Assembly: GCA_051294375.1 (NCBI GenBank) | Contig: CM119271.1 | Coordinates: 428,721 to 492,720, forward strand | Length of the DNA stretch: 64,000 bases | Origin: Paraspadella gotoi | Taxonomy: Eukaryota > Animalia > Chaetognatha | Reading direction: 5' to 3' | Shown: in pieces, positions 3,558 through 54,361 of the stretch | Layout of the letters: each line of letters begins with the position of its first letter | Numbering within the stretch: position 1 is the first letter of the stretch | The notes under the pieces: generated by a model | Databases searched by the model: none | What the model was told of the DNA's origin: nothing | Seen by the model: the letters and a program-made list of their open reading frames with translations, nothing else | Made by a program: the position numbers and the translations under genes

Positions 3558-6500
3558 TCAGAACCCGTCCCCAGTGTCCGACGGCGGAGTCGCCGTGGAG
3601 AAGATCGTCCGGACATCGTTGTTGAATTTGGCGGCCTCTTCCGACGACGAGCACTGAAAGACGAGACACGAAGCCATGACGTCCTCCTCGGGAGACACGG
3701 GATCGACGCCGCCCACTCCCGAAATCCGGCGGCCCGAGGACTCGGCGTCGACGGCGACGGCTATGAAGAAGCGGCGTTGACTACGGAAGGAGACGGCGGC
3801 GAGGATTGTGTGGAGGGGTTGTCTATGGGGGAGTAGGAGTCGGTATTATTATTATGTTTTTAGAATTAATATTATTATTATCAATATTATTTTTATTGTT
3901 ATAAAATTATTCTACAAGCGCTCCATGAACAAACAAAATAAAATAACAAAAACAATAGCAGAAAGAGAGAGAGAGAGAGAGTGGCGTATATCATTCCTCT
4001 TTCGTTTCTGGTCATAATAATAAGGTTATATCCTTTAAATTAAATTACTGTTCTTATTTCCGAGTATACAATATACAGATGAATGAAACCTAATACATTT
4101 ATTTGAATAACAACAAAACTCGAAAAAAAATATCAAAAGACATCGTTTATTGAATTTACTTTCCCTTTCCTGACAGTTATTTTGTACATATACAATATAA
4201 CATCTGGCCCATAATTATTGAGACAAAAGATTGAATGTGTTACAGTTTATAACATTTTATTGTAAATATAAATACAAAATATAATTTTTTAATACTAATA
4301 ACGTTAACTAAATACAGACGAACAAGTTGAACCAAAAAAAGTCACAATTTTCTAGTGAAATGTGGCGTAGGGACCTTTAAATCGAGACGCCAGCTTTCTC
4401 GTAGAAAACCCAACTTTATTTTCCATTCCTTTCACGATGGTGCGCAACTGTCTTGCCGTGAGTTTTCTTGGCCGCCCTGCGCCTTTTTTGTGTTTGAGAG
4501 TATCTCCAGACTTTATTCTTTGTATTACGCGATATATAGATGGACGGCTAACATTTAGCTTCAAAAAATACTGTAAAGTAAATGCTGTTCCTTCTTGTTC
4601 ATGATTTTGGTAGAATTGGGCAATGACTTGACGGCGTGCTTCAGAGTTTGGTAGACAAACATCCTAGGCTTTATTTAAAAAAAAGAGCTTTCTACGGCGT
4701 CCTGGACGCCGTCTACAGGCCCCGGAAGCCGTCTCAATAATTATGGGCCAGATGTTACACGCAAAATATGATTCGGCTGGAAAGATACAGTAAAATGCAG
4801 TGAAAAAGTTGAAATTTGAACGAAAAAAGTTAATTGCAGTAATATTTTTCAAAATACAGTTATAAAAAAGAAATTTATATTACCAGTATCTCTCATGTTT
4901 CAGCTCTTATATGATATCAAAATGTTTTCTGAATTATAAAAGCATTTGTAATAATTATTTTTTTTAATTAACATATATTTTTTTATTATTTTATTTCAAG
5001 CTCACTGCTTGTACTATTCTCTTTTTTCATAAAACAATTTGATCATAAATAGATCCGCTTCATATCTTTTTTTTTATTTTTGAATATTTTATTACAATCT
5101 TAATATAATAAAAATATTTTATTCTGGCAAGCATTTTTTAAACAAATCATTATGTTAAATGTTTTTCTCACTCTTGTACAGAAAGCTTCATATTATAAAA
5201 TGCGGTACCCATTTTTTGTGACCAGAATCTGTTCCCACCAAACTACAATGAAATTCATGAAATTTTACATTTAGAGTTCTAATGACAATATAAATGAAAC
5301 TATCGAGGCGAATTTTAATATTCAACCCCTGACAAGAGATACAGGGCCCTGGGGCTGGACCCCTAGGGGGCCAAAAAAAGCTAAAAATTGTTTTTTTCAT
5401 TTTTTAAAATTTTTTAGTAGAATCAGTTTCATCGATGTTTTAAACATATAAAAATATTTTTAAAACAAATTAATAAATTTTTTGCTAATTAATCGGTGTT
5501 TGAAGATGCATGGTTCATTGTTTTTCTCCAAAGTTTCCAGAATTATTCCAAATCTGATTTGAACAGCTGATGTTAATGAAGCTGAAACTTATGGTAAAAT
5601 AATATTTTTGTGGAAATAAATACATTTTTGTAGAAGAGTAAACATCTGGGCAATTGTTAAAAATAAAAAAAAAATAAAAATTAAAAACAAATTTAGACCA
5701 TTTTTTGCCCCCATGAGTGACCCCTACTGGACTCAGGGGTCAAATATTGAAATTTGCCTCGATATTTCTATTTGTATTCGCATAGGGATCGTTCATACCA
5801 AATTTTATTAAAATCTATTCAAAGTTTTCTCGGAATGTGTTCTGGTCACAAAAAATGGGTACCACATTTTATAATATGAAGCCTTCTGTATTTTATACAT
5901 ACAATTATGGATAAGGCACTATGTGGCTGAAGATGACTGTCCGTAACTTCTATAACCCCCTCTAGCAGCCATGGAACGGGTCCCTGGACTTGGAACCAGG
6001 CTTAAGGCCATCCTCACGCTTCCCACAGGGTAGGTACTGGGTTGGAATTAAACCCGGTACCTAGTGGTCATGAGCCGATGGCTTTACTCAATGAGCCACC
6101 GGGTCACAACTGAAAGCGTCATGCTTATAGGCGTAGTGAACCAAGGCAATGCCCGACTACACAATTGATGTTAAATTATCTTTATCTTTCTGTTCATTGG
6201 TATAATGTTTGACTAATCAATTATGTATCAATAATAAAATAATATTAGATATAATATAAAAATCAAATATTATTATAAATTTATTTTTATTATTTTTATT
6301 TTTAAAGTTTTTTGATTTTGATTAATAGTCTGTATCTAAAATTCTGAATTAGAAAATATTTTTCTCTAAAAATGAATTATCCCTTATTTTTCAACAAATA
6401 AAAATCAATTAAGCATACTAAACTTACATAATAAGCAGTAGAGTGGAGCACTGGGGAACATAAATTTTATTTGAGTAAACAATGATATTTAGACGTGAGT

Positions 6501-9500
6501 TAGAATGATTAAGGAGTACAAAAAATATTTTGCTTATATTGTTTAGAGAACAGTATTTTTAATTACAACATATTTATAGTAATATCCTTACAAAATAAAA
6601 ATTTTAAAAATTATTTTTTTAATTTTTTTATGCAAGATTCTGATTCTTCATAAAAAGTTAGATCAAAAATATAAAATATGTTATTAAGAAATGTAATGTC
6701 TTCAGCATCAAAAATAGAAAAAAAGTTAAAAATCTGCACTTTTTTACTTTCTGTAATAGAAACTTATATGATAAAATATCAAAAATATTTTTATCATTTT
6801 TCGAAGCTTTAACCTAAAAATATCATGAGACATTGTAGAAAATGTCTATTATTAAATCTTTCACTTATTTTACAAAAGTTTTTCAGTCTTTTTTCGCCGA
6901 ATCCAAGACTTTAAAATTAAAAAAATATGATTTTAAAATTTATAAGGATATTACTATAAAGAAAATTCAATTAATGATACTGTTATACAATTTTTTTCAT
7001 AAATGGCTTAATTATTTTTGATGACATATACAAAGGCAGCAAAAAACATTTTTCCATCGCTCAATATTTTCATCACTCCACTCTAATAAGCAGTCAAATT
7101 TGCTACACATATTGATTGACAGATAATACTTTAAAAAATGTTTTTGAAATTTTTTACTATTGATAAAAATGCATTATTACATTGAATAAGTTCAAATATA
7201 GATAAAAAGAACAAAATAATTTTGTAATTCTGGTATCATAATTCATTTGCATATTTTGTATCATTCCTATACAAAAAATAGTGGGTCTGAAATATTACTC
7301 TTTTTCTGTAGACAATGAGTATCTATCGTTAAAGCTCATTATGTATATTCTTAATGTAACCAAGGCTCTCAACATAACGCAACTGCAATTTTTTGTAAGT
7401 ATTTTTTGTCACTTTTGTAAGATTCTTTCATTCTTAACCCTATTTCTCCTCATGTAAAAAAATGACCAAAAGTATTGGGAAAACAAAATTAACGTGATCT
7501 TGCTCATCGTCATATGTATATTTATTTTTTATTTGTATGAAAATAATAATGATGACACAAAAATGACAACAATAATGCCATAACATAATCAGATACAGAA
7601 GGCTTCATATTATAAAATGTAGTACCCCTTTTTTGTGACCAGAACACGTTCCGAGAAAACTATTGAACAGATTTTAATGAAATTTGGTATGAACGATCCC
7701 TATGTGAATAAAAATAGAAATATCGAGGCAAATTTAAATATTTGACCCCAGAGCCGAGATATGGGGCCCGGTAGGGGTCACTCATGGGGGCAAAAAATGG
7801 TCTAAATTTAAAAAAAAAAATTTTTGTTTTTTTTTTGTTTTGAACAGTAGCTCAGACGTTTACTCTTCCACAAAAATGTATTTATTTCCACAAAAATATT
7901 AGTTTACCATAAGTTTCAGCTTCATGAACATCAGCTGTTCAAGTCAAGATTGAATAATTCTGAAAATTTGGAGAAAAACGATGAACCATGCATCTTCAAA
8001 CACTGATTAATTATTAATTAGTTTAAGAGAGAGCAAAGAATTTGAATTTAACAACGATTTTTTTATTAGTAGTTGGACATGTTTCGGCTTGCTTATTTCA
8101 AGCCTTCATCAGCATATGACATTCAATAATAAATTTTGTGCAAAAGAAGAGTGTGAGAGAGAGAGAGAGAGAGAGAGAGAGGGTAAAAGTTTTTCCAACA
8201 AAGTGGTGAGACAGAATAGTGGTCAGATGTGAGGACAGGTTGAAGGTGAGGACAGATTGAGTGAGTTGTGAAAAGAAGTGAAACTTGTTAAAGAGAGAGA
8301 GAGGAGAGAGAGAAGAGAGAGAGTGAGAGAGAGAGAAACAAAAACAACAGAGATAAATAAATAATAAAGATACATTTTTGCAATGTACAACAAAGATAAA
8401 GGAGTTTGAAAAAGTAACATTGGAGAAATTTTAACATTTAACTAGTGAATAAATAAGTAATTAGCTAAGGGATAGTTAAGTGAAAATGAAATATGAAAGA
8501 AAGTAGTTTTTAGTTTTAGTTGATAATTAGGAGATTAAGAAAGTGAAATTCAAGGGAAAGAAGAGCTCAAAGTGAGCTGGCCCCCCTTGTTTATGCAAAT
8601 GAAGGATAAGGACGATGATGACGGGTCATTGGCGTGTCAGTGGCTGAGAGGAGAGTATGACCGAACTGATGAATGCCGGATTGGGAAGCGATCCTTGCGG
8701 AAAGATCCCCAGGGCTACTCTTATGTCTCTTTGGCCTGATACGCCTGCCGGCTGCCCTCTTCTCGCCTGCTGACGAGGTGGCCGTTGTCCGTTCTTGCCA
8801 CTTTTGTGACAGGAGTGACGGACTCCTCTCCCTCCTCCTGAAGCCGTCGCTTTGGGGCGACGCTCAGTCCGCAGAGGGAGGGGCTGAGTTGCTGCATTAG
8901 AGGGAGAGGCATCGTTTGCCCATTGCCTGCGCAAGGGTCTCCGCCTGTCTCGTTGAGTGGAGATAGGGGAGTCATTGTGCGGGCGTGGTGGCGGCGGGGC
9001 CTCCACCACGCTTTTGATAAGCGAATCATAGCTTGGAGGGAGATCGAATCGTCCTCCATCACGGTTCAAAGAGGGCTCGAGGGCTTTGATGTAAATTGGC
9101 CAGCTCACTTTGAGCTCTTTCTTTCCCTTGAATTTCACTTTCTTAATCTCCTAATTATCAACTAAAACTAAAAACTACTTTCTTTCATATTTCACTTAAC
9201 TATCCCTTAGCTAATTACTTATTTATTCACTAGTTAAATGTTAAAATTTCTCCAATGTTACTTTTTCAAACTCCTTTATCTTTGTTGTACATTGCAAAAA
9301 TGTATCTTTATTATTTATTTATCTCTGTTGTTTTTGTTCTCTCTCTCTCTCACTCTCTCTCTCTCCTCTCTCTCTTTAACAAGTTTCACTTCTTTTCACA
9401 ACTCACTCAATCTGTCCTCACCTTCAACCTGTCCTCACATCTGACCACTATTCTGTCTCACCACTTTGTTGGAAAAACTTTTACCCTCTCTCTCTCTCTC

Positions 9501-54299: not shown

Positions 54300-54361
54300 T
54301 ATCTTGCCCCTGACTTTGGACAGGCTTTGGTGGTTTAATACTCCATCACTCTTACAAGATA
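54300..54361 (-). ncRNA. Twister ribozyme motif, type P5 lacking P3 (family D element ~54248-54425); predicted cleavage between 54337 and 54336
   Basis: TATCTTG-taa-GAGT-GATGG-agtat-TAA-ACC-ACC-aaa-G-CCTG-TCCAAAGT-CAGG-gg-CAAGATA; T1 CCA:TGG; T2 AC:GT; 7-bp P5. Confidence 0.78.

Follow-up and report, generated by a model that had tools for sequence, protein, structure and literature searches.

A non-coding miniature LTR retrotransposon with a predicted type-P5 twister ribozyme in the chaetognath Paraspadella gotoi

Repeat families A, B and C

A stretch of 64,000 nucleotides (nt) from the chaetognath Paraspadella gotoi (GenBank assembly GCA_051294375.1, contig CM119271.1, positions 428,721 to 492,720 of the forward strand), here called the window, contains four families of short repeats, A to D, that bear a predicted twister ribozyme of type P5. 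They lie in animal DNA with compact genes and with introns that are rich in repeats. Family A is the long terminal repeat (LTR) of a non-coding miniature LTR retrotransposon and is not SINE-like (SINE, short interspersed nuclear element); B and C are likely LTRs as well. The original prediction, made from the sequence alone, had described the four families as dissimilar repeats that converge on one twister architecture, but neither the LTRs nor the tRNA-like module were recognised in it, nor was P1 seen to be palindromic. The features are collected in Table 1, numbered from the first letter of the window.

Table 1. Repeats of families A to D and their parts in the window
Feature	Position	Strand	Remarks
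Complete family A miniature LTR retrotransposon, 646 bp	324..969	-	duplication TGAG at 970-973 and 320-323
5′ LTR (A2), 232 bp	738..969	-	twister U-1 at 839; T1 with 1-nt deletion
Internal region, 180 bp	558..737	-	primer binding site (PBS)-like TGG site 736-726; purine tract 570-558
3′ LTR (A1), 234 bp, ~96% identical to the 5′ LTR	324..557	-	twister U-1 at 427; T1 mismatch
Solo LTR A3	3222..3452	-	4-bp duplication ATGT; changes in P2 and linker
Solo LTR A4, best-preserved A copy	28042..28275	+	4-bp duplication AAAC
tRNA-like module of A4	28075..28147	+	A-box-like ~28083-28094; B box 28127-28136; acceptor-like stem
Type-P5 twister fold of A4	28150..28223	+	predicted cut 28173/28174; palindromic P1 linker 28167-28172
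Deleted LTR A5	32578..32762	+	part of T arm and P4/L4 missing
Family B repeat, probable LTR	32838..33106	+	TG start ~32838; A box 32895; B box 32938-32947
Type-P5 twister fold of B	32960..33042	+	predicted cut 32987/32988; 8-nt self-complementary linker 32979-32986
Family C solo LTR-like repeat	5906..6161	-	TG start; 4-bp duplication ATTG
tRNA-like module of C	6105-6035 (approx.)	-
Twister remnant of C	6020-5983	-	~33 nt missing; U-1 at 6004
D1, 5′-truncated	50024..50148	+	twister 50038-50097; predicted cut 50061/50062; A-to-G in L4
D2, inverted, head to head against D1	49835..50023	-	T1 mismatch; T2 G.U
D3, longest D copy	54250..54456	-	twister 54359-54300; U-1 at 54337; linker shortened; TA-rich 3′ flank
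D4, decayed	50533..50690	+	palindromic linker and TAA kept; L4 gone
D5, 3′ fragment only	38709..38776	-	even shorter fragment at 32550-32514

In the complete A element, the PBS-like TGG site begins one base past the 5′ LTR, and a G-rich purine tract (polypurine tract, PPT) abuts the 3′ LTR. The two LTRs have variants in common that are not found in the solo copies A3 and A4, and a second copy of the internal region was not found within the window. The element lies in sense orientation within a GT–AG intron (981–262), outside the range of the original prediction; minus the element, this intron (− strand) would be 70 nt long. Target duplications of 4 bp are present at three of the four A insertions and at the one C insertion. 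A unit of LTR, PBS, PPT and LTR with a 4-bp duplication points to an LTR (Gypsy-type) partner for A.

Outside the window, the evidence derives from public contigs of this organism (four runs), aligned to two stretches, and from control sets. The ends of A and C are fixed across many contigs, with unrelated flanks and no tail. The 5′ motif of A is agreed upon by 197, 168, 127 and 26 loose ends, and agreement in the 3′ flank is only 0.39–0.42. Most A and C copies appear solitary in the contigs, and head-to-tail joints for A or B are absent from the best 15 of 88 joints. A tRNA-derived SINE was rejected for A, which has 33 nt ahead of the tRNA-like start and no tail. Also rejected were a tRNA-SINE with an RTE tail (no tail, additional 5′ sequence), a tandem satellite retrozyme (head-to-tail joints absent from those listed) and a Helitron or HINE (4-bp duplications, PBS, PPT). 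The expectation that 3′ tails held in common would reveal a long interspersed nuclear element or a Penelope-like element (PLE) as partner finds no support for A–C, as A ends sharply and has no tail.

The summed contig depth divided by that of the flank is ~16,000–20,000x for A, ~2,000–3,000x for B and several thousand x for C; it does not equal copy number but is a rough sign that copy number is very high. The earlier description of the families as high-copy short mobile elements is supported. A D fragment, the deleted A copy and B lie within 600 bp at 32514–33106, beside an exon of a SOCS-like gene, and other contigs join the end of A directly to the start of B (at single-copy depth).

Families A, B and C have the same layout, i.e., a leader of at least 33 nt, a tRNA-like module containing an A and a B box, and the type-P5 twister, in this order. 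Alignment of the heads gives z scores of 3.9 (A–B), 4.8 (B–C) and 2.3 (A–C), and of −0.3 to 0.7 for D against the others. Because the heads of A, B and C align, descent is likelier than convergence. Of the four dissimilar families, D indeed aligns to none of the others, but A, B and C have an alignable head and a tRNA-like module in common, so that convergence of unrelated repeats is unsupported.

This layout is known from Helenus (TRIMp3), a group of miniature terminal-repeat retrotransposons (TRIMs). Common to both are a short non-coding LTR element, a candidate tRNA-like A/B-box module in the LTR with sequence upstream of it, a TGG-type PBS, a PPT, 4-bp duplications in animals, solo LTRs and several families per genome; Helenus is described as dependent on Gypsy (Kojima, 2024; PMC10886601). 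Unlike Helenus, A–C have a twister after the tRNA-like part and no terminator of four T residues (T4). The structural features of Helenus are present in A, partly in C and least in B. Two LTRs around a non-coding region of less than ~1.3 kb are found in one A copy (646 bp) and were not seen for B, C or D. Both PBS and PPT are found in A, and the nearest entry in the Helenus PBS list is of the tRNA-Trp type, with two differences. As for the Helenus A/B-box motifs, B has TRGCY, YGG and GGTTC, A has YGG and GGTTC, C has TRGCY and, by family majority, GGTTC, and D has none.

Ribozymes, twister, self-cleavage and palindromes are unmentioned in the accessible text of the Helenus paper (PMC10886601), and no twister was seen in those animal Helenus consensus sequences that were inspected. 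Five twister L4 motifs gave four matches in the accessible Helenus consensus file, all in internal regions, in a search that matches split by line breaks may escape. By eye, the tRNA-like part of two wasp LTRs, Helenus-2_SyJa-LTR and Helenus-2_SyUm-LTR, is followed by a hammerhead-like core (CTGATGAG, a stem and CGAAAC), and the T run that is usual there is missing; this core is unremarked in the same text. It is suggested that ribozyme-bearing Helenus elements arose more than once.

The twister fold and its palindromic linker

The elements of a type-P5 twister follow the order P5-P2′-GA-T1′-P1-UAA-P2-T2-(P3)-P4-L4. A descriptor that demanded P2, P4, T1, T2, GA and TAA in this order gave five matches in the window, compared to a mean of 0.5 (maximum 2) over 30 block-wise dinucleotide shuffles. 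Four of these are full matches, namely A4, B, D1 and D3, and the fifth is AT-rich junk at 42845. The type-P5 twister fold is present at the positions originally given and is predicted to cleave. At the gathering score, Rfam gives no match in the window. At E ≤ 10, Twister-P5 (cutoff 37.6 bits) is matched by two D copies, first and fourth of 15, with 22.6 and 21.8 bits; for B the match is to twister-P1 (21.2 bits against a cutoff of 67.2), and family A is unmatched as twister. Rfam misses these motifs because P1 is short and palindromic, and sequenced genomes may therefore hide many of them. With the described type-P5 twister (RF02684), the families have the order of elements, two pseudoknots and the catalytic G and A in common (PMC5408937; PMC6765202). 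They are unlike it in that P1 is a palindrome of 6–8 nt instead of a hairpin of 4–13 bp, that scores lie below the cutoff, and that the T1 and T2 pairs are non-canonical yet compensated.

The pairings of the original prediction were largely borne out. All six T1 triplets that had been given with positions lie where they had been placed. T1 reads CCG:CGG in A, CCA:TGG in B and D and TCC:GGA in C; T2 is GC:GC in A and B and AC:GT in D, and P4 pairs as described. The families also have a paired P2, but in A, C and D it consists of only 3 bp plus a bulge, and the D strand at 50050 reads GTGT instead of GAGT. P3 needs one correction, as that of B has 7 bp. A twister architecture with compensatory changes in T1, T2, P2 and P4 is thus upheld, and the P5 sequences differ between families as well. 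The comparison across four families has little statistical power for covariation. Copies were parsed individually; pair counting on a MAFFT alignment of eight cores was dropped because the alignment put TAA, T2 and L4 out of register.

The half that runs from GA over T1′ and the linker to TAA is kept in 11 copies (five A, one B, one C and four D), three of the A copies lying at 324–3452, beyond the range covered earlier. As had been claimed, the catalytic GA is kept in all 11, but partly by construction, since copies were located by the GA motif. The claimed invariance of TAA does not hold family-wide, as the −1 base (6004) is C in 33%, 35%, 15% and 26% of the C depth in the four runs. Only four of the 11 copies pass the full descriptor and seven are damaged. 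T1 is broken in A1, A2, D2 and D4, P4/L4 is deleted in A5, and A3 does not pass at P2 and its linker holds a mismatch. In the C copy of the window, P3 and the 5′ strands of P2 and T2 are missing. They are present in ~33 extra nt that loose ends of further C copies show in each of the four runs, with a 3-bp P2, T2 GC:GC and an 8-bp P3. C is therefore a full twister family with a deleted copy in the window. At places where the window copies mismatch, the pairing base is carried by 99% (32979) and 99% (33042) of the X4-run depth in B, and by 98% (5988), 96% (6005) and 95% (6010) in C.

The linker between T1′ and the cut site has 6–8 nt and is fully self-complementary in each of the four families, reading GGCGCU (A), UGUCGGCA (B majority), CGGCCG (C majority) and AGGCCU (D). 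Its inner pairs are impossible within one strand or hairpin, and they show a compensatory change (GCGC versus GGCC). For the window linkers of A and D, self-pairing has −8.3 and −9.1 kcal/mol, respectively, and hairpins do not form. The P1 hairpin that belongs to type P5 is lacking, with at most one or two intramolecular pairs. As a control, twisters in P5 order with canonical T1 and linkers of up to 30 nt were collected from prokaryote genomes and phage contigs, with at least 255 raw L4 matches and 114 distinct valid cores among the matches listed. Among these listed matches, linkers are 12–30 nt long in 113 of the 114 cores, nearly all being ordinary hairpins, and the lone 7-nt linker (1/114) is really of type P1; 3 of 107 linkers are palindromic, none of them short. 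A search for the short-linker pattern in metagenome contigs gave two near-identical matches without a P4 stem by eye, which were judged to be chance. In the control set, type-P5 twisters cluster, and a single phage or bacterial contig can hold two or several of them (control loci L012, L136, L204, L213 and others).

The proposed cycle and its alternatives

The anatomy of one A copy, the duplications, the fixed ends, the twister pairings and the self-complementary linkers form the observed basis of a proposed cycle. In the 5′ LTR, RNA polymerase III (Pol III) would start transcription from the tRNA-like module; a T4 run is absent from the complete A element, and also in A–C. The predicted twisters of both LTRs would then cut at U/AA, between 839 and 838 and between 427 and 426. 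The 412 nt freed between 838 and 427 would comprise exactly one LTR and the internal region, with no terminal repeat. A host ligase of the RtcB type, for which circularisation is reported in animals (PMC7229834), could join the ends, and tRNA-primed reverse transcription of the Gypsy type round the circle would give two LTRs or a solo LTR. In the model for plant retrozymes, the circle is likewise copied and two LTRs or a solo LTR are rebuilt (PMC4918200). The reading that A, and likely B and C, are LTRs which combine a tRNA-like module with a predicted twister, and that two cuts free a 412-nt RNA which is circularised and copied by a Gypsy-type partner, is given a probability of about 0.6.

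Plant LTR retrozymes and the A element have in common a ribozyme per LTR, PBS, PPT, 4-bp duplications and solo LTRs and, with the cycle proposed here, a circularised unit between the cuts that has no R repeat (Cervera et al., 2016; PMC4918200). The plant elements differ by their type III hammerhead, by LTRs of ~330–350 bp and by the lack of a tRNA-type promoter in the accessible description. In A, the ribozyme is found in both LTRs as a predicted fold, damaged in this copy, and is a twister instead of a type III hammerhead. The A element would thus work like a plant LTR retrozyme, while falling outside its definition (twister, animal, tRNA-type promoter). LTR retrozymes are described mainly from plants; the retrozymes described from animals are hammerhead tandems of a non-LTR kind, with ties to PLEs (bioRxiv 10.64898/2026.07.22.740005).

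A less sure step of the cycle concerns the linkers. The two LTRs may pair with each other through their palindromic P1 linkers to form a domain-swapped double twister, which would favour cutting in two-LTR transcripts and would spare both the single-ribozyme circle and host pre-mRNAs with solo LTRs. The short palindromic linkers suggest such pairing by analogy to double hammerheads. Dimeric hammerheads of PLE pseudo-LTRs and of newt and axolotl also have a short palindromic stem by the cut site and two ribozymes per transcript (PMC6765202; PMC7229834), and PLE hammerheads with a short palindromic stem III cut as dimers (PMC6765202); they belong to another ribozyme class, and dimer action is demonstrated there and only inferred here. 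In constrained folding, the swapped dimer has −29.9 kcal/mol versus −24.4 kcal/mol for two monomers. Twister cleavage without P1 has also been reported as inefficient (PMC8501958). A tentative extension of the cycle would be that animals have Pol III-driven LTR retrozymes in which a domain-swapped double twister cuts only two-LTR transcripts, so that the circle is stable and many thousand intronic solo LTRs stay quiet, and that the module was exchanged between D-type PLE ends and the Gypsy-dependent TRIMs A–C. The T1 lesions in both twisters of the intronic A element would fit selection against cutting of the host pre-mRNA (n = 1).

Several points weigh against the circular cycle and its dimeric extension. 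Only a single two-LTR copy is observed and both of its twisters have T1 lesions, A begins with TA and not TG, and its A box deviates from the Helenus motif TRGCY. The flanks of A5 and of B (0/1) show no target duplication, and the 3′ end of B lies somewhere within 33061–33106. ARAGORN finds no tRNAs and Rfam no tRNA for single A and B copies, the modules being known by motif only. All twister scores are far under the Rfam cutoffs, and the inner P4 pair of A is A-U, at a place described as an essentially invariant G-C (PMC5408937). The absence of T4 is weak evidence, as 131 of 1000 shuffles also lack it, the predicted circle has only a modest folding advantage over shuffles (z −2.0), and an autonomous partner is absent from the 64-kb window. 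With regard to the dimer, unconstrained folding without pseudoknots gives an inter-LTR P1 pair probability of ~0; this two-LTR fold neither demonstrates the swapped dimer nor disproves it. In GC-only 6-mers with a closing pair, both inner pairs are Watson–Crick in 23% (7% overall), and the palindromes of the four families may not be independent. Moreover, P1 is described as dispensable, with a rate near wild-type (PMC5408937), and natural twisters are reported to tolerate P1 defects (PMC11662667).

Among the alternatives, a linear cycle survives best, although it is judged unlikely. The twister would merely replace the Pol III terminator, with the copy in the 3′ LTR forming the 3′ end and the 5′ copy being misfolded or slow; no circle would be needed, and a terminal repeat of ~90 nt would be left for ordinary LTR strand transfer. 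Most animal Helenus LTRs inspected by eye have a T-rich run directly after the tRNA-like part, the very place where A–C have a twister and no T4, and canonical TRIM replication has been modelled (PMC10886601). However, with both LTRs identical in sequence nothing obvious would silence the first, the self-complementary linker would be purposeless, and plant retrozymes are reported to cut within both LTRs.

Secondly, the ribozyme might be a passenger, a piece of, e.g., a D-like PLE end that a Helenus-type LTR has taken up and can now do without. The sub-threshold Rfam scores, the damage in seven of the 11 window copies and the changed inner P4 pair of A agree with this, as do the described Helenus families, which function without a twister. 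It is nevertheless distinctly improbable, as three LTR-type families differ in T1, P2, P3, P4 and P5 yet keep the pairing and the catalytic G and A, and as the family majorities are intact.

Little probability is likewise left for a model in line with the original prediction, according to which all four families are tRNA-headed SINE-like or PLE-mobilised RNAs, so that A-spacer-A would be a partial tandem of the PLE type or the product of two chance insertions. The mostly solitary copies of A and C and the reported Schistosoma repeats with tRNA plus hammerhead are in its favour, and it does fit D, in which the copies have a common 3′ end and differing 5′ truncation points, D2 is an inverted truncated neighbour and three of five 3′ flanks are strongly TA-rich (9–14 TA per 40 nt versus a background mean of 2.3). 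For A–C, the sequence of at least 33 nt upstream of the tRNA-like start, the fixed 5′ ends, the absence of a tail, the TG/TA...CA termini, PBS and PPT and the single 4-bp duplication around a two-copy unit contradict it. Lastly, chance likeness to twister is very improbable, for in spite of the missing Rfam gathering match and a loose descriptor with 0.5 matches per shuffled window, there are four GC-rich full matches in three families, and the gaps of the fourth family are filled by other copies.

The circular cycle would join tRNA-promoter TRIMs, the LTR retrozymes known with hammerheads in plants, and twister ribozymes. So far, a role of twister in animals has been shown only at the 5′ ends of RTE elements. 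One example is the T-variant twister of the RTE element Perere-3 in Schistosoma mansoni, also a twister with weak P1 that serves a retrotransposon (Liu et al., 2021; PMC8501958); it is of type P1, lies at a non-LTR 5′ end and takes P1 from the target site, whereas type P5 inside an LTR is found here. Unpublished RTE twister work is mentioned in a review. A literature search over sources other than subscription journals and Repbase listed no natural dimeric twister of this kind, nor any twister inside an LTR or a TRIM. If true, the proposed cycle would give animals LTR retrozymes and twister a second biological role, and it would explain how a Pol III TRIM without terminator ends its RNA. Since P1 is short and palindromic, RNAs of 70–90 nt would suffice to test for a naturally dimeric twister.

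Family D, other elements and host genes

For family D, the likelier reading, by analogy, is the 3′ terminus of a Penelope-like element of the Naiad type whose twister is of the same kind, and D is a possible source of the twister module; the PLE partner suggested earlier is thus the best reading for D and not for A–C. Common to D and Naiad PLEs are 5′ truncation, an adjacent inverted copy at the 5′ end, a (TA)n bias and the lack of a canonical hammerhead. Naiad elements have a linked open reading frame (ORF) with an N-terminal GIY-YIG part and a reverse transcriptase. Truncated and inverted adjacent copies, TA bias and the lack of canonical hammerheads are described for Naiad, with twister unmentioned in the accessible text (PMC8557442). 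Beside the D copies of the window, no ORF of at least 150 aa and no linked GIY-YIG plus reverse transcriptase ORF was found; target duplications and a B box were not found for D either. A T5 run lies 3′ of the D twister. D1 and D2 form a near-perfect palindrome of 350 bp (49817–50168), and a transcript of either strand would therefore hold one twister and its antisense.

The host genes between 15941 and 62071 are ceramide kinase-like, RhoGAP, SH2/SOCS-like, NHS-like, rififylin-like RING and WDR76, the best named matches of WDR76 being from molluscs (41–44% identity). The same region holds an uninterrupted Sushi-repeat frame of 1620 aa.

A Penelope-like remnant at 8026–9639 has inverted arms of ~520 bp; both arms contain a minimal hammerhead core (at 9553, +, and 8112, −), and a hammerhead-core scan of the window matches only these two places. 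Stem III of both cores is the 6-nt palindrome ACATGT, the same design as in the twister linkers. The frame between the arms has no Pfam match, and its start resembles the C-terminus of GIY-YIG. A decayed third hammerhead-like core, in a related PLE end, is visible by eye at ~29020–29060 and was missed by the strict scan. In addition, a GC-rich element of 2.5 kb (10584–13058) has split inverted terminal repeats (10637–10780 / 12915–13058 and 10584–10660 / ~12100–12170); its ORFs have no Pfam matches, and it is possibly a DIRS/Ngaro-like or PLE remnant. AT-rich inverted-repeat element families, either miniature inverted-repeat transposable elements or HINE-like, lie at 5177–5900, 7588–7950, 27707–27920 and 29631–29746, and further elements of this kind at 43368–44160, 45160–45588 and 50833–52758.

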